64,000 nt of DNA from a virus (taxonomy: Duplodnaviria; Caudoviricetes): IMG/VR virus record IMGVR_UViG_3300032280_000320, positions 50,332-114,331 of that record; one strand, given 5' to 3'. The notes below the pieces were generated by a model. The model was not told where the DNA came from, made no database searches, and was given only the letters and a program-made list of their open reading frames with translations. This document shows positions 28,560-64,000 of this stretch, piece by piece (the first letter of the stretch is position 1; every line of letters begins with the position of its first letter). The translations under genes and the position numbers were made by a program.

Positions 28560-28560
28560 T

Positions 28561-29277: not shown

Positions 29278-29286
29278 AGTGTCTCC

Positions 29287-29874: not shown

Positions 29875-29875
29875 A

Positions 29876-32143: not shown

Positions 32144-32151
32144 TTTTTCTC

Positions 32152-32901: not shown

Positions 32902-33589
32902 TAACCTTTAATCTTAAAGCTTTTATTTCATGATCACCTATTTTATTACCATAATGATCTACGCCATCTCTATAGAAATTTGTCCATTTGCCAGCCTTAT
33001 TTATTTCATAAACAATATCTCCATATTTATCATCTGGGAAAAACCCTGGAGGCAATTCAAACATATCACGAACTACCGCTTCTGAGTTGTTTAGTTCTTG
33101 TAATGATATTGGCATTATGGATATTACTGGTGTGCCAGCCTTAATAGTAATTACTGTATCTGGTCTAGTAATTCTCCATGCTACTGGAAATTCACCTTTA
33201 AAGAATGAAGTTGATATAACTCCAGTAAATGGGTGTGCTCCGTCTATAAATTGATTAGGGACGGGCATTCCCATTATACTGAGGTTCTCTTCAGTTCTAA
33301 AAAGCAAACCAGTATTAAAGCTTATAGTTGCATTTCCTCTTGTGTTATGTGCGTACTTTTCTCCTGAAAGGATCTTTACGTGATCTGATTCTGAATTAGA
33401 AATGCCATCCCATATAAAGCTAATATCCTCTGGGAAAGATATCCCCCAACCAAGAGCATTTGAAAGACTTACTGGAAAGCATTTATATGCATGCGCCTCA
33501 TAAGTTTCGTCCATCCAGGATCTTTTTATTCCCAGTGGCTCAAGCTTTCCATAGTTTGCTCTTGTTTGGTAGACATCAAATTTGTGCAT
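32867..33589 (-). CDS. DUF6065-like protein
   Basis: KRSWMDET...HAYKCFPVSLSNALGW...FPVAWRIT...KAGTPVISIMP resembles the DUF6065 R.WMD...AY.C.P...N..GW signature. Confidence 0.7.
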   Translation of the reverse strand: MHKFDVYQTRANYGKLEPLGIKRSWMDETYEAHAYKCFPVSLSNALGWGISFPEDISFIWDGISNSESDHVKILSGEKYAHNTRGNATISFNTGLLFRTEENLSIMGMPVPNQFIDGAHPFTGVISTSFFKGEFPVAWRITRPDTVITIKAGTPVISIMPISLQELNNSEAVVRDMFELPPGFFPDDKYGDIVYEINKAGKWTNFYRDGVDHYGNKIGDHEIKALRLKVNDGKPVACSDK

Positions 33590-34266
33590 TAGTACTCACT
33601 ATCTTTTAATGAAAGATTCGTAGCATGTTGTTTATAAAATTCTGGCGAATGTGCAGAATCATTATAGTCAGTCATTGTTACTAAGGAATATTTTGTTCCA
33701 GTTAGAACTGGCATTGCTCTATGTGAAAATAAATACGTTGATGGAAAAATAAATAAGTCTCCAGCATTTGGTTTTACCTCAATCCCAAGTTTTCCAAAGC
33801 TTAATCCGCCACCCTCGTAATCATCATTTAGGTATCCAACCATTGAAACTGTAGCAATATATGACCAGCCGTGGTCAGCATGCTCAGCAAAGTGTTGCCC
33901 TGGACCATACTTAATAAAATTCATTGCTTCCCAATACTTCATATCAATATTGTAAAACTTTGAGTAGTCATCTAGTGCAACCTTTTGAGCGTCATAAAGA
34001 TCTTGCCATACTCTATCAAATTCAAGCATGTACTCATCTTTGCCTGGGTAGTCCATCTTTTTTAATTTAAAATCGTAGCAATCACGATATTCTGGAATTT
34101 TTTCTCTATAGCCTACAGTGGCTTCTTTCCAGTTATGCAGTCCATTACTTGCCTTTAGAGTATTTTCAACTCTTTCAATGGCATTGATTTCTGGCTTTAA
34201 TACGTCACGGTATAGCCATAATCCAGGAAACAGCTCTTCTTTTGAAGAGTATCCAATATTTGACAT
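33589..34266 (-). CDS. 2OG-Fe(II) oxygenase, prolyl 4-hydroxylase-like
   Basis: KYGPGQHFAEHAD...YLNDDYEGG...FSHRA...GTKY. Confidence 0.88.
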   Translation of the reverse strand: MSNIGYSSKEELFPGLWLYRDVLKPEINAIERVENTLKASNGLHNWKEATVGYREKIPEYRDCYDFKLKKMDYPGKDEYMLEFDRVWQDLYDAQKVALDDYSKFYNIDMKYWEAMNFIKYGPGQHFAEHADHGWSYIATVSMVGYLNDDYEGGGLSFGKLGIEVKPNAGDLFIFPSTYLFSHRAMPVLTGTKYSLVTMTDYNDSAHSPEFYKQHATNLSLKDSEY

Positions 34267-51890: not shown

Positions 51891-52453
51891 TATCTACCTT
51901 TGTCTAATGTTCCCTTTTTAAAAACAAAACCTGTTATAAAATATCGTGTCCCAGATGTTACATGTGTTACTGCGTGTGTGTAGTCTTTGTATCCAGAGTG
52001 AACAAGAAGTCTTCCAGCTTTAGGTTTAAGTTTAATTCCTTTGTTTATGTAAACAGTTTCTCCGCCTTCAAAGTCATCGTTAAAGTACACAATGTATCCT
52101 TTAGTAACATTGACACTTGATCCATCTCCATACTCATGGTTATCTGCATGCATTCCAAGTGCCCATTCTTTACCATTGCCAGTTGATACACGAAGTCTAT
52201 TTACAAAAGTGTTTGAGTCACATTCTTCTTCATCATTGTTTATAATGTCTTGGACACGGCTACTTATTGTCATACGAAATTCCATAGAAGACGAGCATTC
52301 TTTAATGTTATTTACCCAGTCGTTCTCACCAATTGACCATCCGTCTTCTTTAAGACAGTCAGTCATCATGATTTCAATTTCATTTGGGGTTAGAAAGTTA
52401 TCAATATAATAGATACCATCATCGACCTTAGTTATGACATAATTATTTTCCAT
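51890..52453 (-). CDS. 2OG-Fe(II) oxygenase, prolyl 4-hydroxylase-like
   Basis: GMHAD...YFNDDFEGGE...YTHAV...GTRY; TGATAGAAT 6 nt before the ATG (leaderless). Confidence 0.88.
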   Translation of the reverse strand: MENNYVITKVDDGIYYIDNFLTPNEIEIMMTDCLKEDGWSIGENDWVNNIKECSSSMEFRMTISSRVQDIINNDEEECDSNTFVNRLRVSTGNGKEWALGMHADNHEYGDGSSVNVTKGYIVYFNDDFEGGETVYINKGIKLKPKAGRLLVHSGYKDYTHAVTHVTSGTRYFITGFVFKKGTLDKGR

Positions 52454-52557
52454 ATCTATATTCTATCATTTTGTAGAACATAGTGCGAAAAATAGTGCAA
52501 AAAAAGTGCTTCGGCGGCAGAAGAACCCTTTTATAAATTTGGGTGTATAATAATAAT

Positions 52558-52719
52558 ATGAGTCCAAGACATTTTGCAAAGATGATGTACGGTCCTTATT
52601 TTTTAAGTGACACCCATCCAGATCAAAAGCAAGTTCAAATAGAGGCAGATATAGAAGAACGTGCCAAAAAGTTTTGGCATATACTCTTAAAGCCTTTCTC
52701 TAAGTTCACCAAATCCTAA
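52558..52719 (+). CDS. Small hypothetical protein (53 aa), leaderless
   Basis: TATAAT 6 nt before the ATG; MSPRHFAKMMYGPYFLSD... Confidence 0.5.
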   Translation: MSPRHFAKMMYGPYFLSDTHPDQKQVQIEADIEERAKKFWHILLKPFSKFTKS

Positions 52720-53241
52720 AGATACTCCAAAGCGGGGGGAAGAAGCAATAACATTATGCTTTCTACCATTAGGACAATATAGGATATCTCCTGGTCCAAT
52801 TACTTTATCAAATTCAATTTCACTATTAGTCTTATCATATATCTGCCATCTGGAATGTCCCTGAAGTTGCCAGAATATAACATTTTCCATATCTATGTGT
52901 TCTCCACCATATGCTGATGGATCTGTAGTTAAGGACATGTATATTTGATGATCACTTCCTACTTCTTCAGCCAATGGAGATTCATGGAGTACCTCTAATA
53001 AATCCTCTAAGGCCTCTCTAACAGCTTTGATCCTATGTGCCTGCCTTATCTTATACCCGCCAAATTTAAATCGCTTCTGACCATACTTCTTGCCATTTTT
53101 TACATCTTCATCTAATAATACAAATACTTCATCCCATGTAACTATTGGCAACTCTAGGTCAGTACGATAGTATATATGTCTGTTTTGTATACTTTGTAGT
53201 AGATTGATATCATTTTGAAATTTATACATAATTCTAGTCAA
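52687..53241 (-). CDS. JmjC/cupin-4 family 2OG oxygenase (YcfD/ROX-like)
   Basis: GEHIDMENVIFWQLQGHSRWQI...PGDILYCPNGRKHNV. Confidence 0.82.
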   Translation of the reverse strand: MTRIMYKFQNDINLLQSIQNRHIYYRTDLELPIVTWDEVFVLLDEDVKNGKKYGQKRFKFGGYKIRQAHRIKAVREALEDLLEVLHESPLAEEVGSDHQIYMSLTTDPSAYGGEHIDMENVIFWQLQGHSRWQIYDKTNSEIEFDKVIGPGDILYCPNGRKHNVIASSPRFGVSLGFGELRERL

Positions 53242-53246
53242 CTGCT

Positions 53247-53324
53247 TTATTTAATGTCATCCCAAGATGCAATTAACAGAACTATCATTGGACCAAATAT
53301 AATTGATGCTTGTAGCCAATTCAT
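53247..53324 (-). CDS. 25-aa membrane peptide
   Basis: GGAGG RBS just after the tRNA; MNWLQASIIFGPMIVLLIASWDDIK. Confidence 0.5.
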   Translation of the reverse strand: MNWLQASIIFGPMIVLLIASWDDIK

Positions 53325-53337
53325 TTTAACCTCCTTG

Positions 53338-53412
53338 TAGGGATACTGGGATTTGAACCCAGAATCTATTGTATATAAGACAAGTGCTTTAACCAGATTA
53401 AGCTATATCCCC
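53338..53412 (-). tRNA. tRNA-Ile (anticodon UAU)
   Basis: GGGGATA acceptor pairs with TATCCCT; D-arm AGCTTAATCTGGTTAAAGC; anticodon loop CT-TAT-AT in stem TTGT/ACAA; T-arm CTGGG-TTCAAAT-CCCAG; CCA not encoded. Confidence 0.85.
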
Positions 53413-53418
53413 TAGGGA

Positions 53419-53496
53419 CTAGCGTATTATCTGATACATTATTCCAAGTATAAATACCATAAAGGTTACTATCGTAACCGCAATTATTGTCTTCAT
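53419..53496 (-). CDS. 25-aa membrane peptide
   Basis: ATGA overlap with the upstream oxygenase; MKTIIAVTIVTFMVFILGIMYQIIR. Confidence 0.45.
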   Translation of the reverse strand: MKTIIAVTIVTFMVFILGIMYQIIR

Positions 53497-53999
53497 GGTA
53501 AAAATTCCAGAGAGTCATCTCCATATGCAAATCCAGTGATATAGTATCTATCTCCTGAAGTTACCACTTGAACCTTATGTGGGATATCTCCTCTATGAAT
53601 GAGCATTGATCCCATCTTTGGTTTAAATGCAATACCTTGATCTGGATACTCTATGTTCCCGCCCTCATATTCATCATTGAGATAAATTACAATTCCCCAT
53701 TTGATTCCAACTTGATCTGGACGTTCTCCATATGCATCATCACGATGTAAATCCATTCCGCTATTGGTTTCCCATCTTTGAACTCTATAAAACCCAGCCA
53801 TTCTTTCTAAATTTTTAAACATAGGATCAACTCTACTACGTAATTTACGAAACAATGGAGCAAAATCATTATGCTCAAAATATAGCTGCATCTCACCATC
53901 ATTTTTAAGATTTCTTTTTGAAACTTCCATGAATGATGCTATCTCACTATCTGAGATATAATTTTCAAACTCATAGATACCATCTGCAATTAAATTCAT
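53493..53999 (-). CDS. 2OG-Fe(II) oxygenase, prolyl 4-hydroxylase-like
   Basis: DLHRD...YLNDEYEGG...IPHKV...GDRY. Confidence 0.88.
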   Translation of the reverse strand: MNLIADGIYEFENYISDSEIASFMEVSKRNLKNDGEMQLYFEHNDFAPLFRKLRSRVDPMFKNLERMAGFYRVQRWETNSGMDLHRDDAYGERPDQVGIKWGIVIYLNDEYEGGNIEYPDQGIAFKPKMGSMLIHRGDIPHKVQVVTSGDRYYITGFAYGDDSLEFLP

Positions 54000-54568
54000 C
54001 TTAAATCTCCAAATCCTAGAGAAGCACCAAACCTTGGAGTAATAGCTTCTACCTTATGTGGTCTACCATATGGACAATAAAGAATATCACCAGGTTCTAG
54101 TATAACATCTACATCTATCAAATCATCTGAGACGTTTTCTAGATCTTCGTATTCCCCCGCTTTATAAATTGTCCATCTTGACTTGCCTTCAATATTCCAG
54201 AAGATCACATTCTCAGTATCCTGATGAAGTTTCCAGTATGTTCCATCTTGTGTAGTAATATTCATGTATAGATGTGTAGATCTACCCTCAACCTCAAGTT
54301 GATAGTTTGATTCTGTAAAAATTTCTAATAATTTTTTTTGTGCATCTGCAATTCCTGGAATACGCATTGCATTTAGGATTCTAAATCCACCATTTTCATA
54401 TCGCTTTTGTCCATATAGGTTTCCTGCCTTTACATCCTGATCTAAGATTCTGAATGCGTCATCCCATTTAATCTTTGGTAACCCCTCCACATTTTTTGCA
54501 ACATGAACAGTAGCGTTGTTAAAAGCTGATCTAAATTCAGCGTCATCAAAGATATCAAAAGTGGCCAT
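53996..54568 (-). CDS. JmjC/cupin-4 family 2OG oxygenase (probable start 54568, leaderless)
   Basis: KLHQDTENVIFWNIEGKSRW...PGDILYCPYGRPHKV; paralog of 52687..53241; TGCTATACT 6 nt before the ATG. Confidence 0.82.
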   Translation of the reverse strand: MATFDIFDDAEFRSAFNNATVHVAKNVEGLPKIKWDDAFRILDQDVKAGNLYGQKRYENGGFRILNAMRIPGIADAQKKLLEIFTESNYQLEVEGRSTHLYMNITTQDGTYWKLHQDTENVIFWNIEGKSRWTIYKAGEYEDLENVSDDLIDVDVILEPGDILYCPYGRPHKVEAITPRFGASLGFGDLR

Positions 54569-54587
54569 GTCTCTAGTATAGCATTTG

Positions 54588-54603
54588 TGTTTCACGTGAA
54601 ACA
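54588..54603. promoter_or_regulatory. parS: parS site (ParB-binding centromere-like palindrome)
   Basis: TGTTTCACGTGAAACA is an exact 16-bp match to the bacterial chromosomal parS consensus. Confidence 0.85.
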
Positions 54604-54853
54604 AGTTCTGGTCAACTACTATTTCAGATTTAAGAAAATGTTAATATTTATTTTTCTTGTATGATACACACCTAAAAAAAGAGCGATAAATCTTGATAGT
54701 CCGCCCATATTGTCCTCAATGTCCGATTTATACACTAAAAAAGTTGTGTGATGTGCCTCACAATGTCCGATTTACACCATTTTCGAGTTGATATTTGTCA
54801 GACCCCCGTGTTATGATTTATATATAAAGAAAAACAAACGAAAGGAGTCAAAA

Positions 54854-55009
54854 ATGACTCAACTTACAGAAACACTATTCTCAACAATAGTTCATGACTA
54901 CCATAACGGCGGAGTAAAATCCTCATATGGATTAGATAACTACACACGCAAGGAAATCCTTGCCTACCTTATCCGCTCTAAGGGTTGCGAGTGCATAAAC
55001 TGTCTGTGA
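54854..55009 (+). CDS. Small hypothetical early protein (start 54854)
   Basis: GAAAGGAG RBS; MTQLTET...GCECINCL. Confidence 0.65.
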   Translation: MTQLTETLFSTIVHDYHNGGVKSSYGLDNYTRKEILAYLIRSKGCECINCL

Positions 55010-55093
55010 TAGACATCACACGCAATACCCTTGCAAATGTCAGACTTATCTGATACCTTTATCTTATTGAACTACTAAAGAAAGAAGAAACAA

Positions 55094-55282
55094 ATGTCAT
55101 ACTCATTCGATACTAACACCGCCTCTAAGTGGGACACAATTCAAGAAGATGTTGCAGACATGTACCTTGAAGAAGAAGAAACAGAAGAAGAAGATTTCTT
55201 TGGTTTCTCTAAGTCTATTGAAACAGACCACCTAACAGATGAACAGATTGACACACTACTAACCACTATCGATTGGAACTAA
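55094..55282 (+). CDS. Small acidic hypothetical protein
   Basis: ORF track; Glu/Asp-rich; own promoter. Confidence 0.65.
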   Translation: MSYSFDTNTASKWDTIQEDVADMYLEEEETEEEDFFGFSKSIETDHLTDEQIDTLLTTIDWN

Positions 55283-55286
55283 TCTA

Positions 55287-55457
55287 ATGACTATCACTTA
55301 CTCAATTTGGCAAGGCTCTAAACTAATCTCTATCGACAATGTAGCGCATGAGGCTAAGGCTATTGACCACCTAATCCAATCTCTTAACGCTAGCGAATTA
55401 GGCAAGGTTAAGAAATTCACCGCTAATGTACAAAACATAAAGGTAGGGGCTAACTAA
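55287..55457 (+). CDS. Small hypothetical protein (56 aa)
   Basis: MTITYSIWQGSKLISID...; TAATG coupling to the next gene. Confidence 0.55.
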   Translation: MTITYSIWQGSKLISIDNVAHEAKAIDHLIQSLNASELGKVKKFTANVQNIKVGAN

Positions 55458-55594
55458 TGACTATTGAACTAGATAACTATGGTTTCATGCTAGATACAGA
55501 ATGGTGCTATGTTGCACTATCATGGCAACTACTAATCACCACCGCCCTACTAGTAACCGCTTACAAGATTTATAAGAGAAAGAAGAATAAGTAA
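55457..55594 (+). CDS. Small membrane protein (45 aa)
   Basis: MTIELDNYGF...LSWQLLITTALLVTAYKIYKRKKNK; TAATG coupling. Confidence 0.55.
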   Translation: MTIELDNYGFMLDTEWCYVALSWQLLITTALLVTAYKIYKRKKNK

Positions 55595-55716
55595 TGAACA
55601 GACTACTAACTACTATCGTGCAACTATCTATCGCTATCCCCGCCCTATACATGATGAGGATCGTGTATCATGATTTCAAGGCGGAGATGCGTGAGATGTG
55701 GCAAGAATCACACTAG
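55594..55716 (+). CDS. Small membrane protein (40 aa)
   Basis: MNRLLTTIVQLSIAIPALYMMR...; TAATG coupling. Confidence 0.5.
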   Translation: MNRLLTTIVQLSIAIPALYMMRIVYHDFKAEMREMWQESH

Positions 55717-55991
55717 CCTAACGGCGTGTCGACTTGACATTGTCAAGCTGGCCCGCAAAGGCGCGGGGTCGGGCGTGTCGTTATGAACATGTTATAAAAT
55801 CCCCTGAAATTTACGGCGTGTCGATTTGACAGACAAAACGGACATATTGGTGTGATGCTTATCACATAGCCAGTGTGATGCTTATCACAATACCCACGCT
55901 CCACATAGTGAGACAATTACCCCTAGGATTGGAAAATGTCAGTGCCTTTTGGTACAATACTCTTATAACAACAACGAAAGAAGGTCAATTC

Positions 55992-56111
55992 ATGAACCTA
56001 GATGAATTCCGTGCCCATGTAGAGGCAACCCGTCAAGCAAGCAAGGCAGAAGCCTTGTCAGTGCTATCTGCTACAATGTCCGTATCAACAACAACGAAAG
56101 AAGGTCGCTAA
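55992..56111 (+). CDS. Small hypothetical protein (start 55992)
   Basis: GAAAGAAGG RBS before MNLDEFRAHVEATR; its 3' half carries the next promoter. Confidence 0.55.
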   Translation: MNLDEFRAHVEATRQASKAEALSVLSATMSVSTTTKEGR

Positions 56112-56317
56112 TGTCAGCGAATGTCTATAATGTCGAAAGCCTCTTAGTAGGTAAAATGTATTACTCTAATTCAGTAAAGGGCGAGATTATCTCAGCCGAA
56201 AAAAATGATGATGTATGGTACTCAGGTGCAGATACATACAAGGTGCAAATTCGCCCTGTAAATTCTTTTGATTTTAAGGATACATACCGCTATGTAGCGG
56301 TGAAGGTAGGTGACTAA
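56111..56317 (+). CDS. Hypothetical protein
   Basis: ORF track; RBS and promoter upstream. Confidence 0.65.
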   Translation: MSANVYNVESLLVGKMYYSNSVKGEIISAEKNDDVWYSGADTYKVQIRPVNSFDFKDTYRYVAVKVGD

Positions 56318-56481
56318 TGCTGAACATAATTGACAAAACCGATTTCTATGAAATCGCAGATGAGCAACACTTTTGCTGTGATGAAAGTCAGTTTAAGTAT
56401 TACTGTATAGAGCACTTAGAATTTATGGGTTGCTACTTTTGTGGATTTGATTACGATAAAGATTGCGAGGAACAACACTAA
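56317..56481 (+). CDS. Small Cys-rich protein (54 aa)
   Basis: MLNIIDKTDFYE...CCDE...CIEH...GCYFC; TAATG coupling. Confidence 0.55.
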   Translation: MLNIIDKTDFYEIADEQHFCCDESQFKYYCIEHLEFMGCYFCGFDYDKDCEEQH

Positions 56482-56624
56482 TGGGATACATTGAGATTTT
56501 TAGAATGGATCAAAATGGTGCAGGCTGGGTAGATTTATCTGACGCTACCCCTGATGAACTATTTACTATTGAGGTAGGGCTACTTAATGAGGGAGCCTTA
56601 TTCCATACCCCCGAATCTGACTAA
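56481..56624 (+). CDS. Small hypothetical protein (47 aa)
   Basis: MGYIEIFRMDQNGAGWVDL...; TAATG coupling. Confidence 0.55.
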   Translation: MGYIEIFRMDQNGAGWVDLSDATPDELFTIEVGLLNEGALFHTPESD

Positions 56625-56676
56625 TTTGTCAGACCCCTCTGCTACAATACTCTAAACAACTACGAAAGGGAAACTA

Positions 56677-56883
56677 ATGCATAAAGTAACTTGCCAGTAT
56701 GACTTTGAGGAAAGCCCTCATTGGTCTGCAAACTACGAGGACGAATTCGAAGCGTGGAAATCTTTTTTCTCATTCACCGACTGGGGAATGGCTAATGAAT
56801 ACTCAACTGTAAATATTTACACACCAGCATTAAAATGCTACACAAAAGTTTTTTATCGCAACGGAATGGTGGTAACGAAATGA
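56677..56883 (+). CDS. Hypothetical protein
   Basis: ORF track; GAAAGGG RBS. Confidence 0.65.
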   Translation: MHKVTCQYDFEESPHWSANYEDEFEAWKSFFSFTDWGMANEYSTVNIYTPALKCYTKVFYRNGMVVTK

Positions 56884-57065
56884 TGACCCGTAAAGATTAT
56901 GTAGCAACCGCAGAAATTCTAAAGTATGCAAGCGATAAAGCGCACCCCGCTTTATTTTCTAAAATGGTAAATGATTTTGCGGAAATGTTTGCAAAAGATA
57001 ATCCGCGTTTTGATGTTGTGAGATTTCACGAAGCAAGCAATTACAAAGTAAAGGTGGGCAAATAA
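56880..57065 (+). CDS. Hypothetical protein (MTRKDY...DNPRFD type; start 56880)
   Basis: ATGA overlap; MMTRKDYVATAEIL...FAKDNPRFDVVRF. Confidence 0.65.
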   Translation: MMTRKDYVATAEILKYASDKAHPALFSKMVNDFAEMFAKDNPRFDVVRFHEASNYKVKVGK

Positions 57066-57176
57066 ATGCAAATCGTTGAAATGTTTGTGTGTTCAGATTG
57101 TGAAGATTTCGGTGCAGTTTATATTGAAGGGAATGTGTTAAGTGTTAAAAGATGTGAATGTATTGCAGAAGATTAA
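57066..57176 (+). CDS. Small Zn-finger-like peptide (36 aa)
   Basis: MQIVEMFVCSDC...RCECIAED. Confidence 0.45.
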   Translation: MQIVEMFVCSDCEDFGAVYIEGNVLSVKRCECIAED

Positions 57177-57273
57177 ACGAATTCAAGAATTGCGAAGATC
57201 AAATGCAGCAACCGCAATTCCTTCAAAGAAAAAATATTCACGAAAGCGCAAGCATAAAAATTCAGAGTATTGA
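57163..57273 (+). CDS. Small basic peptide (36 aa)
   Basis: TTG start; QKIKRIQELRRSNAATAIPSKKKYSRKRKHKNSEY. Confidence 0.45.
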   Translation: MQKIKRIQELRRSNAATAIPSKKKYSRKRKHKNSEY

Positions 57274-57419
57274 ATATTTATGCGGCCCGCAATCTTTTGT
57301 GGGGGGCAAGTGTGAATTACGACACATTTTAAAAATCGCCTGAATTTTTCGGCGTGTCGATTATGATATGTCAGTGGCCCATGGTATTATTCTCTTAAAT
57401 CTAACGAAAGGTCCAACTC

Positions 57420-57629
57420 ATGGAACTATTTACTGTTGCTTGCTTAAACTATGAAATTTGTGGCGATATGGCTACCTTTGATTCTGATTCAGAATATGAA
57501 ATCTATGGTGATGATTATATCTGCGCTGAATGCTATGCGTCTGAGGAAATGGAATTTTTTGAAACTATTGGCTGGGCAGATTCAGACGCATTAGCGTCTG
57601 CAGGCCATGGAATGGATGAGGATTACTAA
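57420..57629 (+). CDS. Small acidic Cys-containing protein
   Basis: ORF track; CLNYEIC...CAEC; GAAAGG RBS. Confidence 0.65.
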   Translation: MELFTVACLNYEICGDMATFDSDSEYEIYGDDYICAECYASEEMEFFETIGWADSDALASAGHGMDEDY

Positions 57630-57660
57630 TATGTCAGATCTAACCGCTATAATTACCTCT

Positions 57661-58380
57661 ATGAAACTTAAACGGTCCAACGATAGAAAGGTGGCTAACC
57701 TTGTCACAAAAAATGGAAAGCAAGCCGCAATTGCTAACACATTCGGATTACCTGCAGGAAAGGCTTATTCATGTCCTGGCGCTACGTCTATCTGCGAAAG
57801 TGTTTGCTATGCAGGCAAATTGGAAAAGCTCTTCCCTGGTGTAAAAACTAATCTTCTTCACAATTGGGAATTGCTACGCAATGCAGACATGGACACAATG
57901 CTCATTCTATTAGATGAGATGATTGTTGAATTTATTGCTGATTGTGAGAAGAAAGACGCTCCTAAATTATTCCGTATCCACTGGGACGGTGATTTTTTCA
58001 ATGATACTTATACATATGCGTGGAAAGTAATTATTAATAATCATCCTGATATTCAATTTTGGGTTTACACACGTGTAAAGTCTGCAGCGCTTATTCTTAA
58101 GGATGTTGCTAACCTATCTCTTTATTATTCCACCGACGATGATAATAAAGAAATTGGCCATGAGTTAAAAGTAAATGAAGGTATTCGCCTTGCATATCTT
58201 GGGAAGACATTCGCCGTAACTGAGGGCACCATGAAAGAATTGACTGGTAAGCCTGGCGCTAAGTGTCCTGAGAATATGAAAAGCATTCCACTTATTAGCA
58301 ATGCAGGTTCTGCATGCGTGTCATGCGGTCTCTGCGTATATGGTAAGGCTGATGTTAGATTTTCTGCGAGTAAGAAATGA
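57661..58380 (+). CDS. Mycobacteriophage gp88-like protein (CxxxxxxCxxxC, radical-SAM-like); probable leaderless start 57661
   Basis: FGLPAG...SCPGATSICESVCYA...FRIHWDGDF...FWVYTR...CVSCGLC; TATAAT 7 nt before the ATG. Confidence 0.75.
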   Translation: MKLKRSNDRKVANLVTKNGKQAAIANTFGLPAGKAYSCPGATSICESVCYAGKLEKLFPGVKTNLLHNWELLRNADMDTMLILLDEMIVEFIADCEKKDAPKLFRIHWDGDFFNDTYTYAWKVIINNHPDIQFWVYTRVKSAALILKDVANLSLYYSTDDDNKEIGHELKVNEGIRLAYLGKTFAVTEGTMKELTGKPGAKCPENMKSIPLISNAGSACVSCGLCVYGKADVRFSASKK

Positions 58381-58472
58381 CGGATATACTGGGGGCAATT
58401 ATTGGAGTCGGGATCTTAATTGCATTACTGGTCCCGCTTCCAATAATTATTTATACAATATTTAAACAATAG
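58377..58472 (+). CDS. 31-aa membrane peptide
   Basis: ATGA overlap; MTDILGAIIGVGILIALLVPLPIIIYTIFKQ. Confidence 0.5.
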   Translation: MTDILGAIIGVGILIALLVPLPIIIYTIFKQ

Positions 58473-58661
58473 CGGCGTGTCGGCTTGACAAGATCAAGCT
58501 GGCCCGCAATGTTGCGGGGTTATCCACAGGCTTACGGGAGTTATCCACAATCCCTTGAAATTGTGAGTATTATCACAAAAGCTGCGACACGCCCATAATG
58601 GATTAGGTAATGTCAGTGGCATAGTGTAAAATACTCTTATCAACCAAACGAAAGGCAACAA

Positions 58662-58886
58662 ATGTCAAATGTAATCCGTGTTCCACACACAATAGTATTC
58701 GAGGCTATTATTAATCTTGATACTATTCCCGCTAACCTACTACCTGCGCTAATTGCTCTTGATGAAGCAACAATGACGCAAATGTGCAAAGAAGCAACAC
58801 TACACGCACTTGGTATGTCTAATGTATTACCACTTGCTAATGAACACAACACTTGGGCAGAAGTAACAATTAAGGAAGGTAACTAA
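58662..58886 (+). CDS. Hypothetical protein
   Basis: ORF track; GAAAGG RBS and promoter. Confidence 0.65.
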   Translation: MSNVIRVPHTIVFEAIINLDTIPANLLPALIALDEATMTQMCKEATLHALGMSNVLPLANEHNTWAEVTIKEGN

Positions 58887-58888
58887 TA

Positions 58889-59155
58889 ATGGGATACACA
58901 ACAGCATTAGCATTAGAAGAAGAATTGTCTTTAGAGGCAGGACTTGCTTATCACTTGCAGGGTAATCATTACCCACCCGTTCCCGTCTCAATGGTGCAAC
59001 CTTGCATAGACGCTATTGATGCGTTCTATGATGAGGATTTTGATCGTGAGATTAATTTACCTGAAGGTATCTCTTGGCGAGGTAAAACTTCAGCACCCGC
59101 ATCTGCCATAATTGATGCTCACCACTTAGACCCGTGGCTACCTGAGTGTGATTAA
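58889..59155 (+). CDS. Hypothetical protein
   Basis: HLQGNHYPPVP...AIIDAHHLDPW. Confidence 0.7.
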   Translation: MGYTTALALEEELSLEAGLAYHLQGNHYPPVPVSMVQPCIDAIDAFYDEDFDREINLPEGISWRGKTSAPASAIIDAHHLDPWLPECD

Positions 59156-59250
59156 CCTCACACAATAATTTTCTCAAATACTGAGATAGGGCTAGACAAA
59201 TGTCATACCCCAATGTTATACTACCTACCTAACAAAGAAAAGAGGCAAAA

Positions 59251-59427
59251 ATGACAATCAACGACAAGTTGTATCAGGTTGGCGATTTATTCACCACCCT
59301 AAAGTCAAAGAAAACAGGTGTGATTAAGGAAATCCACCCACAGGCATCTGGCTCGGTGCGTGTGTTGCTAGAAATGCCAAACAAGGAAACTCGCTGGACT
59401 TCGGTATCAGCAAGCACTTTGGCATAA
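59251..59427 (+). CDS. Small SH3/KOW-like protein (58 aa)
   Basis: AGAGG RBS; YQVGDLFTTLKSKKTGVIKEI...VRVLLE...TRWTSV. Confidence 0.6.
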   Translation: MTINDKLYQVGDLFTTLKSKKTGVIKEIHPQASGSVRVLLEMPNKETRWTSVSASTLA

Positions 59428-59567
59428 AACTAAATAATCGAAACAGGGGCAGTTTAAGAGAGTGTTCTCGCCCAATGTCGTAAGTAAGAACTCTCTCCCT
59501 TCGGGGAAATGTCAGACCCCCCTGCTATACTATCCACTAACAACAACCCATCAACGAAAGGTAACAA

Positions 59568-59984
59568 ATGTCAAGAGCAATCACAGTAAAGGTGGCAACA
59601 CCTAAAGTAATCAAGGCACTAGAAACTCGTCTAGCAACACTAGAAAAAGACTATGCTAGTCAAACAGCAAATGAAGCAAAGTTCCAAAAGGCACACGAAG
59701 CGTGGAAAAAGGAAATTGGTAAGTGGGCTATTGCTAACTTCTCAAAGGCTGAGAACCTTCGCACATCTTATCGCTCTTGGAACAACACTCTCAATGTTGA
59801 TTTTGACATCATCACAAAAGAGGGAACTTTCCCTACCGAACCTGAAAAGGATTTCGAGGTTATCCATCAGCACACTTATCGTGAGATGAAAGAGGACATC
59901 ACAAATGCTCTCACCATCTTAAAGATGACAGATGAGGAAACAGTAAATGCTTCTACAATGAAGCAAATTGCTAAGTATCTCTAA
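59568..59984 (+). CDS. Hypothetical protein
   Basis: ORF track; GAAAGG RBS and promoter. Confidence 0.7.
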   Translation: MSRAITVKVATPKVIKALETRLATLEKDYASQTANEAKFQKAHEAWKKEIGKWAIANFSKAENLRTSYRSWNNTLNVDFDIITKEGTFPTEPEKDFEVIHQHTYREMKEDITNALTILKMTDEETVNASTMKQIAKYL

Positions 59985-60083
59985 ATAATTTGGGGGGCAG
60001 AACTAAAGTCCTGAACCCAAACGACCTGAGTAAGTCGCCAAACTGCTCTCCCTTATGGGACAACTACTAACAAAGGTAATACA

Positions 60084-60344
60084 ATGGCAAATCGTTTTAG
60101 AGTTGAAATCTATGACGCAAACAAAATGAATGACATCACAATCTATTCAGATCAAGGTGTCGATAAAGAATACTTAACTGAATTAGTATTCAGCAACATC
60201 AGAAACTTTAGCGGAAGAGTTAATGCTTATGTTTTTGATAATGTAAAAAAGAAAAAGACAACTGCATTATTTTTTGATGAGGATACAGTTGAAAAAGTTA
60301 ATTCAATTACACGTGGCTTAAAGAAAATGGAGTTGGGGTTCTAA
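60084..60344 (+). CDS. Hypothetical protein
   Basis: ORF track; AAAGG RBS. Confidence 0.65.
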   Translation: MANRFRVEIYDANKMNDITIYSDQGVDKEYLTELVFSNIRNFSGRVNAYVFDNVKKKKTTALFFDEDTVEKVNSITRGLKKMELGF

Positions 60345-60524
60345 ATCCCAGCTTTGCCCGCAGTATTGCGGGGTTATCCACAGGTTTATGAGGGGCTGTG
60401 GAAAACCCTGAAAGTTTGTGAGATTACTCACATGGATCAAATCGGACAAATGACTATCTAATCTAGACAATGTCAGTGCCACCTGTTATACTTACTTAAT
60501 CAACCAATCGAAAGGAATAAATCC

Positions 60525-61529
60525 ATGGCTCATAATCTAGAAATGGAAAATGGCGAAGTTGCATTTGCACTTCGTGGCGCACCTGCTTGGCATAATCTTG
60601 CCAATCGTATTTTCTCACAAGATGAGGAAGTAACTACACAATCTATGCTTGAAGAAGCAAAGTTATCAAATTGGAATGTTCGTCTATCTCCAATCACTGA
60701 GCACATTCCAGAATCTTGGAATGATGTATCTACTGCATCTCTTGTCATTCGTGATAATCCATTCAATGGCGGAACTGATGTTCTTGCTACTGTTGGTAAG
60801 CGTTACAAGCCTGTGCAGAATGAAGAACTATTTGCATTCGCTGATGCAATTCACGATGCCAATGCTGATTGCCGTTGGGAATCTGCTGGCTCACTAAAGA
60901 AGGGCAAAGTCGTGTTTGGAACTGTAGACATTCCTCGCACAATGGTTATCGACCCACAAGGCGCTAACGATGAGACTAAACTCTATCTAATTGTTTGGAC
61001 ATCACACGATGGTTCTGTAGCGGTGCAGGCTGCCGTTACTCCTGTTCGTGTTGTTTGCCAAAACACTCTTAACCTTGCAATGAAAAGCGCAAAGCAATCT
61101 TTCAAGATTCGCCACACGCAATCTGTTGAAGGTCGCATTCAAGTTGCTCGTGAAACTCTTGGGCTTGCTCTTGGATACTTTGATGAATTTGAAAAAGAGG
61201 CTCAGGCTCTTTACACTCAGGCAATTACTGATGCTGAATTCTCTAAGTTGATTCGAGCAATCTATCCTAAGCCTGAAAAGGATTCTAAGGGTGCGCTAAA
61301 GAAGTGGGAAAATAAGGTTGTTCTACTTGATGACCTTTATCATAACTCACCAACTAACGCTACAATCAAGGGAACTAAGTGGGGCGCATTTAATGCACTT
61401 ACTGAGCGACTTGATTACTATCGTTCAGGTCGTGGTAATTCTGAATCACTAATGGCTGGTGCATCAGGATTTGACCCTGTACTAACCGCAGAGAAAAATA
61501 AAATTCTCAAGTTAGTAAAATCATTTTAA
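60525..61529 (+). CDS. DUF932/DUF945-family phage-plasmid protein
   Basis: PAWHNL...YKPVQNEELF...ESAGSLKKGK...TSHDGS...TPVRVVCQNTL...IRHT...GTKWGAFNALTE. Confidence 0.85.
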   Translation: MAHNLEMENGEVAFALRGAPAWHNLANRIFSQDEEVTTQSMLEEAKLSNWNVRLSPITEHIPESWNDVSTASLVIRDNPFNGGTDVLATVGKRYKPVQNEELFAFADAIHDANADCRWESAGSLKKGKVVFGTVDIPRTMVIDPQGANDETKLYLIVWTSHDGSVAVQAAVTPVRVVCQNTLNLAMKSAKQSFKIRHTQSVEGRIQVARETLGLALGYFDEFEKEAQALYTQAITDAEFSKLIRAIYPKPEKDSKGALKKWENKVVLLDDLYHNSPTNATIKGTKWGAFNALTERLDYYRSGRGNSESLMAGASGFDPVLTAEKNKILKLVKSF

Positions 61530-61538
61530 CTAAATGAT

Positions 61539-61572
61539 TAACGGGGGAGAGAAATCTCCCCCGTTTTTATTT
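61539..61572 (+). terminator. Intrinsic terminator
   Basis: AACGGGGGAGA-GAAA-TCTCCCCCGTT then TTTATTT. Confidence 0.85.
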
Positions 61573-61645
61573 GGTTCGTTAGCTTAGTGGTTAAAGCGCT
61601 ACCCTGTCACGGTAGAGATCATGGGTTCAAATCCCATACGAATCG
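61573..61645 (+). tRNA. tRNA-Asp (anticodon GUC)
   Basis: GGTTCGT/ACGAATC acceptor; CTACC-CT GTC AC-GGTAG anticodon arm; ATGGG-TTCAAAT-CCCAT T-arm; CCA not encoded. Confidence 0.88.
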
Positions 61646-61801
61646 CAATAAATATTTATGCATAAGTGTGCATAAATATTCGCCCGCAATGTTAAGGGAA
61701 AATTTTTTGTGTTACGGATCACATAAAAAAAGCCCTGAAAAGTATAGACAGATGTCAGTGGGGTCCGCTATAATACTCCTATACAAACGAAAGAGGTAAA
61801 A

Positions 61802-62227
61802 ATGTCAAATAGAACTAAAGGATACACTGGAACAATTGTTGACGGCAAGAAGCTTGCTGAAATTGCAAACGGTATTTATAATCTACAATACAGTTCAGAT
61901 TTTTCTGAGTGCACAGTAGATAATCTATTGTTCATTGAACTAGAAGAGAAGAATGTTTTTGGTGATCCAAAATATGCTCTTGTATGTTCAGAAGGTGTTG
62001 GTTGGGAACAAGATACATATGGTTGCCTGGAAGTACCTACTAATATTGGTGCTATGGGCCTATGGAATGGAAGAGTATTCATTTCAGTAGATACTGTTAA
62101 GTCTTGCCTTACTGATAAGACTGAGGATATATCAGATTACATTAGAGTCTTTGGTTCCCGCCTTGATTCTAACTGCTCCCTATGGCAGTCCAAAATGTCA
62201 GTGGTCTCTGATAGAATACTCGTATGA
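61802..62227 (+). CDS. Hypothetical protein
   Basis: ORF track; GAGG RBS and promoter. Confidence 0.65.
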   Translation: MSNRTKGYTGTIVDGKKLAEIANGIYNLQYSSDFSECTVDNLLFIELEEKNVFGDPKYALVCSEGVGWEQDTYGCLEVPTNIGAMGLWNGRVFISVDTVKSCLTDKTEDISDYIRVFGSRLDSNCSLWQSKMSVVSDRILV

Positions 62228-62886
62228 CCAACGAACTCATATCATCTAAATATACATTTGTCTGTGACCCAGATGAATGCGACTGCTTAATTGAATTAAC
62301 ATCATCAGACGGGTTTGGATTCCCTTCTGGTGTGACAGAACTCACATGTCCATGTGGCCGTAAGACTACCTTATTGTCAGTGGAGCATGCTACAATTGCA
62401 CCTTCAACCCAAACGAAAGAGGAAAAAATGGAAGATACAACAACACCTGCAGTAACAGTTCCTGCTACATATAACCCTAATCTATTGGTAACTTACAAAG
62501 TTATCCGTGGTTACTCAGATGCAGAATATGCAACTGACAAGGTCACATCAATTGAATGGGACCTACACAATGCACGTCAAGCACAAAAGCACAATAGTGT
62601 TTATCAAGACAAGATTAACACAGTAAAAGATATTATCACTGAGGCATATGGAGATTCAGACGACCAAGAAACTCTTCGCTCAATTGCTGAAGCGCTTGAC
62701 ATTGCTTTGACACGAGATGTTGAGTGGTCTGCAACAATTGAGGTTAGCGGAACTATTCAATTAGATTTGCTTGCTGATTCAGATACAGATGTAGAACAAG
62801 AAATCTACGATAATCTTTATGTTGATTCACAAAATGGCAACATTGAAATTGTTGACACTGAAGTATGTAATGTTCGTGAGAACTAA
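62224..62886 (+). CDS. Hypothetical protein with N-terminal Zn-ribbon and internal in-frame start at 62428
   Basis: CDPDECD...CPCG; internal promoter at 62375 and GAAAGAGG RBS before MEDTTTP. Confidence 0.65.
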   Translation: MTNELISSKYTFVCDPDECDCLIELTSSDGFGFPSGVTELTCPCGRKTTLLSVEHATIAPSTQTKEEKMEDTTTPAVTVPATYNPNLLVTYKVIRGYSDAEYATDKVTSIEWDLHNARQAQKHNSVYQDKINTVKDIITEAYGDSDDQETLRSIAEALDIALTRDVEWSATIEVSGTIQLDLLADSDTDVEQEIYDNLYVDSQNGNIEIVDTEVCNVREN

Positions 62887-63089
62887 TGTACTTTGAACTT
62901 ACCGCTCCTGATAGGCTCTCCATGGAGAGAGCCTATTGGGATGCAGAGATAACTGGGCTAGACCCTGAGCAATGCGGGCCGTTGACTTTCAACATTGGAA
63001 CTGGTAGTATTGAGAAAGTAAGTCGCATTCGTGACAAGTATAATTTAAAAGAATCATACTGGTCAGACAAAGAAGCGACAGGATACTAG
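62886..63089 (+). CDS. Hypothetical protein
   Basis: ORF track; TAATG coupling. Confidence 0.65.
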   Translation: MYFELTAPDRLSMERAYWDAEITGLDPEQCGPLTFNIGTGSIEKVSRIRDKYNLKESYWSDKEATGY

Positions 63090-63097
63090 GAGATAAT

Positions 63098-63244
63098 ATG
63101 TCAGACTATAGAGATGGATTTGATGACGGGTATAAGTTTGCTCGTGAAGAACTAATTGAGAAGTTATCAGAGATTGATATTTCTGATATCGACACTTGGA
63201 TTCTTGACCGTCTCTCAGAGATGATTGAAGGTGGAACACTGTGA
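63098..63244 (+). CDS. Small acidic protein (48 aa)
   Basis: AGGAG RBS; MSDYRDGFDDGYKFAREELIEKL... Confidence 0.6.
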   Translation: MSDYRDGFDDGYKFAREELIEKLSEIDISDIDTWILDRLSEMIEGGTL

Positions 63245-63432
63245 TGGCTGAATGGCTTAAGTGTGATCAGTGTGCAGCTCAGGCAATGTGGGAAGCAAAG
63301 AAAGATGAGATGTCTCTTTATTTCTGCGGGCACCACAAGAATTCACAGGGAGAGTCCCTTGTGGACTGGGCCCAAGAAATGGTACAATTGCTTAACTACG
63401 AGCAAAATCAACTACTAGCAAAGGCGGAATAA
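63241..63432 (+). CDS. Small Zn-binding protein
   Basis: CDQC...LYFCGHH. Confidence 0.65.
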   Translation: MMAEWLKCDQCAAQAMWEAKKDEMSLYFCGHHKNSQGESLVDWAQEMVQLLNYEQNQLLAKAE

Positions 63433-63433
63433 A

Positions 63434-63832
63434 ATGGGAGATAGAGCAAACTTCGGATTTAAACAGAGCAATGGTGACGTTATTGTTTTGTACGGTCACT
63501 GGGCTGGCCACGAGATGTTAGCGCAATTGGCTAGCGCTGTTGAAGCGGCACGTCCTAGGTGGACCGATGAGGGATATGCAACACGTATTGCTATCTCTCA
63601 CCTAGTGGGCCAAGATTGGGAATCAACAACTGGTTGGGGAATTTATATTAATACAATTCCTGACAATGAGCACAAGATTCCTCTAATCGATTGGCGCAGT
63701 GGGACCTTTAGTCTTCATGAGGAAGCATCTTATGATGAAGATACAAAAGTAAATGGCATGGCGGATGAGCCGATGTTTACACAAACATTGGATGCATTTG
63801 TAAATAAATATTCCTTGATACTTTCTAAGTAA
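63434..63832 (+). CDS. Hypothetical protein
   Basis: MGDRANF...LYGHWAG...RWTDEGYATRI. Confidence 0.7.
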   Translation: MGDRANFGFKQSNGDVIVLYGHWAGHEMLAQLASAVEAARPRWTDEGYATRIAISHLVGQDWESTTGWGIYINTIPDNEHKIPLIDWRSGTFSLHEEASYDEDTKVNGMADEPMFTQTLDAFVNKYSLILSK

Positions 63833-64000
63833 CACGGAACCATATGGTGCCTCTATCAGTCATTAAATGGCCAGGGGTTAAATAAAGCAGAGTTCTTTTA
63901 CTTTCGTTGGTGAAACTCTAGCAGCCTATATAAAAGCTTGACAAATCATGATCTGGCCCGCAAAAACATAAGGGTAACATATTTTGTTTACGAGGTCAAT

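Follow-up and report, generated by a model that had tools for sequence, protein, structure and literature searches.

Repeated promoter cassettes with host-type regulatory words in the small-gene arm of a freshwater phage genome

The viral record IMGVR_UViG_3300032280_000320 (Duplodnaviria; Caudoviricetes) ends in an arm of small plus-strand genes divided into at least 14 short operons, each headed by a copy of one repeated cassette. Words resembling bacterial control sites are found in and beside these cassettes: a parS site, DnaA boxes, CRP-type palindromes, and the sequence GGCGTGTCG. The promoters with which the cassettes end match, in sequence, spacing, and position, those of the actinobacterial activator PafBC (DNA damage, “sigma adaptation”), as that type is described in the available text of the papers cited below. 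The analysis covers a 64,000-nt window (positions 50,332 to 114,331 of the record; coordinates are those of the window unless marked “genome”), and in particular the interval 54580..61780, which takes in the plus-strand arm and the divergent junction at its left edge. Judging from the sequences, we think it rather probable that PafBC, CRP, DnaA, and in this phage ParB, all supplied by the host, are the readers of these terminator/operator/promoter cassettes, which are comparable to the promoter-early stem-loop (PeSL) cassettes of T4-type phages.

The record is 114,331 bp long, with ends classed as linear (IMG/VR) and completeness given as 100% (CheckV); the window is its final 64 kb and has a G+C content of ~38%. 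The minus strand carries nearly all of the genes that lie from genome 1 to 104,935, including those for portal, capsid, and tail proteins, a Pol III alpha subunit, a DnaB-like helicase, a primase, and RecA. Because a WhiB-like regulator is also encoded on this strand, the virus is taken to be an actinophage. The plus strand has 28 small open reading frames (ORFs) between 54,788 and the contig end. Pfam families were recognized in three of these (GP88, DUF932, and DUF7455, all of unknown function), and PHROGs assigned a function to none of the 28. The best explanation for this region is that it is the small-gene “takeover” arm of a lytic, low-G+C actinophage of ~115 kb.

Numbers of the host-like words were compared with the mean of 100 dinucleotide-preserving shuffles of the window. 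There is one exact parS (TGTTTCACGTGAAACA, 54588-54603), with 0.01 expected; three exact DnaA boxes (TTATCCACA, at 58520, 58541, and 60374), with 0.69 expected and three or more in 2 of the 100 shuffles; eight exact CRP-type TGTGA-N6-TCACA palindromes, with 0.11 expected; and six GGCGTGTCG sites (55723, 55772, 55815, 57351, and 58474 on the plus strand, 58585 on the minus), with 0.00 expected. ParS, the CRP palindrome, and GGCGTGTCG are therefore strongly enriched, the DnaA box only modestly so; the boxes at 58520 and 60374, moreover, are not independent events, since they lie in homologous repeat cassettes. A chance origin of the words was rejected on these shuffles together with their conservation. 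An earlier reading, made from the sequence alone, had listed one parS, three DnaA boxes, seven CRP boxes, and six GGCGTGTCG copies; all of these counts are correct. The seven CRP boxes within the interval are at 54747, 55005, 55851, 55874, 58562, 59147, and 60417, and the eighth, added here, is just past it at 62331. The same reading put the words almost entirely in intergenic DNA, which mostly holds: the CRP boxes at 55005-55020 and 59147-59162 overlap the stop codons of small ORFs, and that at 62331 is within ORF 62224-62886, yet upstream of an internal promoter. Its suggested scan of the whole genome likewise comes out in its favor, all four word types being restricted to genome 104.9-112.7 kb in the 114,331-bp record.

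For the motif TGTCRG-N10-TAnnnT, the window has 15 matches where 0.83 are expected, and 14 of the copies are co-oriented in the arm; there is none on the coding strand of the remaining ~105 kb. The arm promoters are:

starts 54796, 55038, 55937, 56056, 56112, 56627, 57369; plus strand; co-oriented PafBC-type motif matches, first seven of 14
starts 57632, 58611, 59510, 60471, 61753, 62196, 62375; plus strand; co-oriented PafBC-type motif matches, remaining seven
start 59201; plus strand; promoter with TGTCAT, a variant of the TGTCRG motif

Two of these copies, 56112 and 57632, overlap start codons and are questionable as promoters. The 766 unique cores of the window and of 80 related loci give the consensus aaaTGTCAGtgcc..atGcTAtAAT, or TGTCAG, 10 nt, and an extended -10 element. 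No -35 element emerges from these cores: upstream of TGTCAG, no position is conserved at 45% or more except for a run of A. Five window promoters do, however, have a fair -35 hexamer at 17-18 nt. If transcription is assumed to start 7 nt past the -10 element, TGTCAG occupies -28 to -23. The in vivo motif of PafBC is tGTCgg(N10)tA(N3)T, with the PafB helix-turn-helix contacting -23 to -28, the “-26 element”; the promoters that depend on it have no -35 element, and activation requires single-stranded DNA (PMC8635444, PMC6789036, in the text available). The phage promoters thus share with the PafBC (RecA-NDp) promoters of mycobacteria and other Actinobacteria a -26 element of the form TGTC(A/G)G, its distance of 10 nt to TAnnnT, its position at -28 to -23, and the fact that a -35 element is conserved in neither. 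As far as those sources describe the bacterial promoters, the phage ones differ in preceding small genes of unknown function rather than DNA-repair genes, and in that most copies add a TGn extended -10 and have CRP-type and DnaA words upstream. The sequence-only reading had noticed repeated promoters without identifying them. That the core promoters match the site of a host-specific activator strengthens its view of the arm as an interface to the host. Among the papers listed by the literature searches, none reports PafBC-type promoters on a phage.

One such promoter is internal to a gene: at 62375-62430, within ORF 62224-62886, a PafBC-type promoter is followed by a leader and an in-frame ATG (62428). 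The ORF may yield two products, or may be a fusion.

The gaps between the small operons are copies of a single cassette, with its parts in a constant order. One or two G+C-rich hairpins come immediately 3' of the preceding stop codon; often a TTATCCACA box stands right behind the hairpin, with a second box 21-23 bp further on; then come the short conserved words TTAyGrG and CCCTGAAA, the TGTGA-N6-TCACA palindrome, in some cassettes GGCGTGTCG, and finally the promoter with a common leader and ribosome-binding site, AACGAAAGG. Hairpin stems vary in a compensatory fashion among relatives (CCCGC/GCGGG, CCCCC/GGGGG, CCCCT/AGGGG), and the cassette hairpins fold as predicted, with weak folding z-scores (-0.5 to -2.65). 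Cassettes M1 and M3 include the following:

55723..55823, plus strand: three GGCGTGTCG copies (55723, 55772, 55815), cassette M1
58481-58501 and 58503-58518, plus strand: two adjacent hairpins 3' of ORF 58377-58472, the terminator-like part of cassette M3

We are confident that the cassettes are regulatory. TTGACA words within them were considered as extra -35 elements and set aside, as no consistent -10 partner could be seen by eye.

Two further sequences in the arm may be mentioned here. A hairpin at ~63887-63917 has, in and beside its loop, CUUUCGUU, a sequence complementary to the leader and ribosome-binding site that the arm genes share (AACGAAAGG); the surrounding 110-nt stretch folds no better than its shuffles (z = -0.02). 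A word A(A/T)CGGACAT is common to the freshwater phages (38% G+C) and to the terminal-repeat cassettes of Streptomyces phage Jay2Jay (53% G+C), and may be an ancient site particular to the lineage. The window junction (54700-54790) has two copies of its complement, ATGTCCGAT; the word is also present at the junctions of four related loci (L012, L015, L019, L020) and in L178.

The position of each word was measured in 831 unique promoter contexts, drawn from the 80 loci as well as from the window itself; these contexts are related sequences, and their transcription starts are assumed as above. CRP-box centers cluster at -54.5 (11 contexts), -64.5 (57), -74.5 (86), and -84.5 (50), and the peaks remain after the contexts are clustered; there are also small groups near -106 and -138. 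Centers of the eight boxes in the window are at -53.5, -64.5, -69.5 (twice), -74.5 (twice), -83.5, and -106.5, as follows (P with a number is the promoter starting there):

54747..54762: CRP-type palindrome, center ~-69.5 from P54796
55005..55020: CRP-type palindrome, center ~-53.5 from P55038; the stop codon overlapped is that of ORF 54854-55009
55851..55889: two identical CRP-type palindromes, 23 bp apart, centers ~-106.5 and ~-83.5 from P55937
58562..58577: CRP-type palindrome, center ~-69.5 from P58611
59147..59162: CRP-type palindrome, center ~-74.5 from P59201, the TGTCAT variant promoter
60417..60432: CRP-type palindrome, center ~-74.5 from P60471, the promoter of the DUF932 gene
62331..62346: eighth CRP-type palindrome, in ORF 62224-62886, center ~-64.5 from internal promoter P62375

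Class I CRP sites in E. coli are centered at -61.5, -71.5, and -82.5. The phage arrangement resembles these promoters in having perfect TGTGA-N6-TCACA palindromes upstream of the core promoter at ~10-bp steps, and differs in the centers themselves (-54.5/-64.5/-74.5/-84.5, on assumed starts), in an additional off-phase class at -69.5, and in the PafBC-type core. The ~10-bp steps suggest an activator obliged to face RNA polymerase, as at class I CRP promoters.

DnaA boxes peak at ~-121, -114 to -116, -100, and -93 to -95, and are accompanied by a CRP box in 136 contexts, against 7 without. The window boxes, three exact and one an inverted variant, form two pairs 21-23 bp apart at ~-94 to -121. 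For GGCGTGTCG the peaks are at -42 in forward and -50 in reverse orientation. The window sites concerned are:

58520..58549, plus strand: two direct exact DnaA boxes, 21 bp apart, immediately behind a G+C-rich hairpin
60374..60405: exact DnaA box (60374-60382, plus strand) and inverted variant TTTTCCACA (60397-60405, minus strand); a long hairpin is possible
57351..57359, plus strand: GGCGTGTCG, center ~-42 from P57369
58474..58593: GGCGTGTCG at 58474 (plus strand) and 58585 (minus strand), the second centered at ~-50 from P58611

The parS site is at the promoter of a leftward gene:

54588..54603: parS 16-bp palindrome, 16/16 match, covering ~-34 to -19 of the leftward promoter
54567..54583, minus strand: extended -10 TGc TATACT (54583-54575) and ATG (54569-54567) of a JmjC-like gene, a leaderless-type geometry

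Read along the minus strand, the order is parS, 7 nt, TGc-TATACT, 6 nt, and the ATG of the JmjC-like gene (ORF 53999-54604, Pfam JmjC_2). Nearly the same arrangement recurs in a second sub-lineage with unrelated flanks, where a 15/16 parS is followed by 5 nt, TATAAT, 6 nt, and the ATG of a 47-residue ORF. Since it lies within the leftward promoter, the site reads as an operator and not as a partition site, and with this geometry a bound protein should block that promoter. The reading of parS as an operator is new to the present analysis. The exact site is found only in the four closest loci, and the 15/16 version in six loci of the second sub-lineage; the junction is otherwise kept in relatives without parS. 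One option of the sequence-only reading, that host partition machinery is borrowed for persistence of the genome, is weakened by this limited distribution and by the operator-like placement. The leftward promoter itself was also considered as a PafBC-type promoter and rejected, the 6-mer 10 nt upstream of its -10 element not being TGTCRG.

Relatives were sought by searching a viral collection with the DUF932 protein. This gave 325 related stretches, of which the best 80 loci, 91-99% identical in DUF932, were used; five complete relatives of 112-120 kb were also compared as whole records. Two arm genes serve as reference points:

57631..58380, plus strand: GP88-family gene (PF17338), one of two arm genes in common with Streptomyces phage Jay2Jay
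60525..61529, plus strand: DUF932 gene, the query for relatives; its Jay2Jay homolog sits in the terminal repeat

CRP, DnaA, and GGCGTGTCG words are found upstream of DUF932 in nearly all 80 loci, in varying number and order. The complete relatives have 7, 8, 6, 4, and 5 CRP palindromes, in each case within a single stretch of at most ~8 kb and with none elsewhere (control 0). All 32 of their GGCGTGTCG sites are in the arm (control 0), 26 of their 31 TTATCCACA boxes are in or adjoining it (control 2), and each of the five has 14-17 co-oriented PafBC-type motifs in one ~9-12 kb arm, with 2-6 elsewhere (control 2-3). Conservation in related phages, on which the sequence-only reading had made its proposal depend, is thus found for the CRP, DnaA, and GGCGTGTCG words, which are in the same arm of all five complete relatives, and fails for parS. 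The arm is mosaic in gene content, as is to be expected of recombining cassettes: each of the 52 full-span loci has the same 10 of the 28 ORFs, and the other 18 are found in 3 to 51 of the loci.

Comparison with relatives also bears on the extent of the arm. In the closest of them (L008 13482-16476), ~3 kb lie between the points matching the end (64000) and the start (genome 1) of this contig; on this evidence the arm was probably broken off at an assembly break in a repeated cassette, and is ~3 kb longer than it appears here. A cluster of three DnaA boxes, TTATCCACAgggTTATCCACAtccTGTGGATttttt, is found in other relatives (L012 16577-16610, and at the same place in L019, L020, L029, and L040), its last two boxes forming a short hairpin followed by a run of T. 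It lies at the far end of the arm, adjoining GGGCAAAATTTTCTATTTACGA...CCCTGAAA units in tandem, and could be an origin or a terminator. It is absent from this record and from its closest relative.

There is weak DNA similarity to cluster-BE-type Streptomyces phages, among them Jay2Jay (Samistivirus; NC_029098.1), a distant relative that has been cultured. Its genome has an 11,438-bp direct terminal repeat (1-11438 = 122094-133531, 100% identity), and inside this repeat are homologs of both DUF932 and GP88 (~50% identity), together with a run of small leftward genes with hairpin-plus-promoter cassettes between them. By homology, the arm described here is probably part of a long direct terminal repeat that was collapsed in assembly. 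Unlike this arm, the Jay2Jay repeat is devoid of CRP palindromes, DnaA boxes, parS, and PafBC-type motifs, so that the host-like words are an acquisition of the low-G+C freshwater lineage; the repeat also encodes ParB-like nuclease-domain and Lsr2-like proteins, which the present phage lacks.

If the words are read by proteins, these could come from the phage or from the host. By Pfam at E<=1e-3, no ParB, ParA, DnaA, CRP, or WYL domain was found in 160 ORFs spanning the genome (84 + 76), which bears out, and extends to the whole genome, the earlier statement that the window has no parB, dnaA, or crp gene; parS would then depend on a host ParB. Even at E<=1, there was no DNA-binding hint for the 12 arm proteins kept in at least 50 of the 52 full-span loci.

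Whether suitable host proteins are plausible was judged from five stand-in genomes, complete actinobacterial genomes of 1.3-1.4 Mb with a local G+C content of 47-49%, taken from 401 genomes sampled within the class to which a Streptomyces genome belongs. (Five others, G019, G094, G117, G140, and G201, were dropped at ~58% G+C locally.) PF13545 (CRP) is present in all 401 sampled genomes, 10 of them unpublished, and each of the five stand-ins has one CRP ortholog, with the recognition helix RETVNKALADF, and an adjacent pair of WYL-domain genes, pafBC-like. A strict form of the promoter motif, TGTCRGTG-N8-TAnnnT, occurs 29 times in the five genomes against 2 in the control, and the TGTCAGTG variant of the -26 element is common to the phage promoters and the stand-ins' own promoters. 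In one stand-in, the strict motif precedes genes for a LysM protein, an OGG-like glycosylase, a C5 methylase, and TPR proteins, among others, often 6 nt before the start codon. Three or four exact TTATCCACA boxes surround the chromosome start in two of the five, and a 15/16 parS is near the chromosome end in three.

WhiA, which recognizes GACAC, is a possible reader of GGCGTGTCG. In two stand-ins, three GGCGTGTCG sites were examined per genome; all are intergenic and exactly conserved between the two genomes, with varying flanks, which makes a host factor with a small regulon possible. The conserved GGCGTGTCGC sites (L180-L185; G408, G149) are syntenic, upstream of rpsL, a DUF4193 gene, and a PIN-domain gene. 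At one of them, GGCGTGTCGC is followed by AAAGTCCGATTCA...TTCTATCTTTTACGAG, resembling pieces of the phage cassettes. As a separate observation, one stand-in has seven strict PafBC-type motifs in 24 kb (G149:C1:443341-467143; L188-L194), in front of genes for TPR proteins, a trypsin-like peptidase, a C5 DNA methylase, an OGG-like glycosylase, and proteins of unknown type. This stretch may be an island under PafBC control.

Environmental data place the arm in lakes and other fresh waters: parts of it are contained in freshwater and lake-water metagenome runs of several studies, and contigs of four freshwater metatranscriptome libraries match 22-26 of the 30 bins of 53000-64000 at 90% likeness or more, which speaks for presence in RNA libraries and not for transcription. 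Two bins at 53734-54467 are uncovered in all four metatranscriptome runs, a gap that proves nothing.

Under the reading favored here, host RNA polymerase with its housekeeping sigma factor would fire the promoters once PafBC, activated by single-stranded DNA, is on. A host CRP-family dimer would modulate them from class-I-like positions, host DnaA would occupy the box pairs further upstream, and in this sub-lineage host ParB on parS would restrain the neighboring leftward genes. Our somewhat better than even confidence in these host readers is owed to three things: the four words are canonical host sites, the stand-ins have the proteins and the -26 variant, and no phage regulator was detected. 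Part of the host-interface interpretation offered by the sequence-only reading accordingly stands, in that the words are real, confined to the arm, and positioned at promoters with no phage regulator gene found; parS conservation and novelty in kind are among the parts that do not.

A number of observations weigh against reading by host proteins. Protein-DNA contacts, timing of expression, and identity of the host are all inferred only, and the stand-ins were selected on size and G+C alone, with the phage (38% G+C) lower in G+C than any of them. Exact CRP palindromes number only 1, 0, 0, 0, and 0 in the five stand-ins; being nearly missing there, those of the phage would have to be “super-sites” out of the ordinary, or else serve some other dimeric protein. 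GGCGTGTCG is not above control in the stand-ins (3-5 vs. 5-13). An extended -10 in most of the promoters, and a fair -35 in some, might permit firing without PafBC. The off-phase CRP class at -69.5 (39 contexts, including two window promoters) is unfit for one helical face, and the promoter contexts, as related sequences, are not independent events. Several DnaA boxes are in possible hairpins, and in relatives in a terminator-like hairpin, so that they could be conserved in part for their structure and not for binding of DnaA. A parS with at most one mismatch is present in only 10 of the 80 related loci and absent from 70, some of which stop short upstream. The homologous terminal repeat of Jay2Jay has cassettes and none of these words. 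Most arm proteins, finally, are unannotated, which leaves room for a phage-encoded binder.

The last point is the starting point for a different explanation: the words might be operators for phage-encoded regulators, either unannotated arm proteins or a protein carried in the virion, which would resemble host sites by convergence or through a shared DNA-binding fold and would serve an autonomous early shut-off or an early-to-middle circuit. All 28 scanned arm ORFs are without known function, and the ten that occur in every full-span locus could encode regulators. The rarity of exact CRP palindromes and GGCGTGTCG in the stand-ins points the same way, as does A(A/T)CGGACAT, which is common to Jay2Jay despite the different G+C content and suggests that lineage-specific phage sites do exist. 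Matches to host sites are nevertheless canonical, at 16/16 bases for parS, 9/9 for the DnaA box, and 10/10 specified bases for CRP, and in both sequence and spacing for PafBC; the stand-ins use the same TGTCAGTG variant at promoters of their own; no helix-turn-helix, CRP, ParB, or WYL domain was detected in the phage; and the first promoters must work before any phage protein exists. We regard control by phage regulators as unlikely, if still worth bearing in mind.

Host proteins could also be bound without being put to regulatory use. As a decoy or sponge, the arm would titrate host CRP, DnaA, and ParB and so derange carbon control, replication initiation, and segregation, with twice as many sites in case of a terminally repeated arm, and a further increase through replication. 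Eight perfect CRP palindromes in 8 kb, against 0-1 per 1.3-1.4 Mb stand-in, would suit such a role; exact DnaA boxes are about as many as in the stand-in origin region, and in Jay2Jay the homologous arm lies in a terminal repeat. Fixed geometry would be unnecessary for a sponge, yet the CRP boxes are phased and the DnaA boxes and GGCGTGTCG stand at preferred distances; because of the ~10-bp phasing of the CRP boxes, regulation of promoters fits better. The sites are also few (3-8 per genome), parS is single and missing in most relatives, and titration may be a by-product of regulation. A dedicated decoy therefore seems improbable. Less probable still is that the DnaA boxes and parS are a replication origin and partition site using host DnaA and ParABS, for plasmid-like persistence or positioning. 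The phage does encode a DnaB-like helicase, a primase, and a Pol III alpha subunit with no recognized initiator, the cluster of three DnaA boxes that adjoins repeats, at the far end of the arm, is conserved in relatives, and phi29 uses host parS sites for spore entrapment (PMC2731898, in its available text). Here parS is in a promoter and in single copy, and 70 of the 80 related loci lack it; genes for ParA and ParB were not detected; the window DnaA boxes are at ~-94 to -121 of promoters, almost always with a CRP box (136 vs. 7); and the three-box cluster is lacking in this record and its closest relative.

Control by host proteins might be carried further, with the takeover arm as a multi-input reader of the state of the host that uses host proteins only. 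PafBC, as single-stranded-DNA alarm, would license every small operon, and CRP, through cAMP, would set the gain from its phased sites; the DnaA pairs and the ParB operator would sense copy number or cell cycle, and replicating phage DNA would titrate scarce DnaA and ParB, releasing the next genes. A host alarm for DNA damage or phage would in this way become the ignition switch of a lytic phage. We put this forward tentatively, as a possibility on which we would not yet rely.

The sequence-only reading described the module as undescribed, which is not so in kind, to go by the available text of reports on several other phages. Phi29 and Nf have parS sites for host Spo0J, and boxes for host Spo0A at early and late promoters; the five parS sites of phi29 serve its segregation into the spore (PMC2731898). 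Phi29 and Nf are, like the present phage, virulent with host ParB-type and master-regulator sites by their promoters, while encoding neither protein. They differ from it as these sources describe them: five parS sites serve spore segregation in phi29, against one here, in a promoter and in some lineages only; and the other regulator there is Spo0A, against CRP, DnaA, and PafBC here, in likely hosts that are not spore formers. Alphaproteobacterial phages carry dense CtrA sites, connected with “lytic deferment” (PMC9437464). These are also skewed to one region, mainly in promoters, as a conserved genomic signature; that case concerns another phylum and regulator, whereas several regulators per fixed-order cassette are proposed here, and in the text available CtrA binding is experimental where ours is predicted from sequence. 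Phage T1, with promoters regulated by host CRP (PMC6737242), is a precedent for that part of the scheme.

For the cassettes themselves, the closest parallel is with the PeSLs of T4-type phages (PMC2839356, PMC4122927). These too are small composite cassettes of a terminator and a promoter, which recur between the small, non-essential ORFs of a hyperplastic region, with gene content between cassettes mosaic among close relatives. In the available text of these papers, PeSLs have plain sigma-70 early promoters, and no host-regulator sites are reported for them. Among the papers accessible to the literature searches, none reports the present combination, its fixed cassette order, or phage use of PafBC-type promoters.

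Some other features of the genome may be recorded. Between the DUF932 gene and cassette M5 there are a terminator and a tRNA gene; a second tRNA gene is on the other side of the junction, and Rfam at gathering level recognized nothing but tRNA:

61540-61565, plus strand: canonical intrinsic terminator between the DUF932 gene and cassette M5
61573-61646, plus strand: tRNA-Asp(GTC), inside the arm, 3' of the intrinsic terminator and before cassette M5
53337-53412, minus strand: tRNA-Ile(TAT), the second phage tRNA gene

The region where arm and minus-strand genes meet (genome 1-560; L005) has TACTCCAC repeated three times, three words resembling ATGTCGACA, and a hairpin, AAGCCTCTAGGAGGCT; these could mark a genome end, a packaging site, or a terminator. 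At least 11 paralogs of 2OG-Fe(II) oxygenase/JmjC-like proteins are encoded, in a tandem run at 27960-34266 and a second group at 51893-54604 adjoining the junction, with further paralogs in the first 10 kb of the genome. A minus-strand ORF of 3,865 residues (4312-15906) combines minor-tail (tape-measure-like) and OmpA-family domains. Outside the window, at genome 23021-25144 on the minus strand (L006:4024-6144), is a gene for a KatG-like catalase-peroxidase of 707 residues (Pfam peroxidase, E = 3.7e-62). Assignment of a host by way of this protein was rejected: its top matches are ~60% identical and scattered over many phyla.

Phages of this kind are numerous, with 325 related stretches found by DUF932 alone and parts of the arm in several freshwater studies. 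To judge by its cassettes, this phage probably couples its takeover genes to the state of the cell. If PafBC, CRP, DnaA, and ParB do read the cassettes, it would be the first virus known to use the “sigma adaptation” pathway, and a rare lytic phage combining several global regulators of its host at each promoter. Being short and modular, the cassettes lend themselves to tests with proteins purified from culturable surrogates; they would also be natural high-affinity sites and compact regulated promoters for actinobacterial genetics. For the biology of these phages, such reading would suggest that the outcome of infection is tied to the DNA status and the carbon or energy state of the host, with a bearing on virus-host dynamics in lakes.

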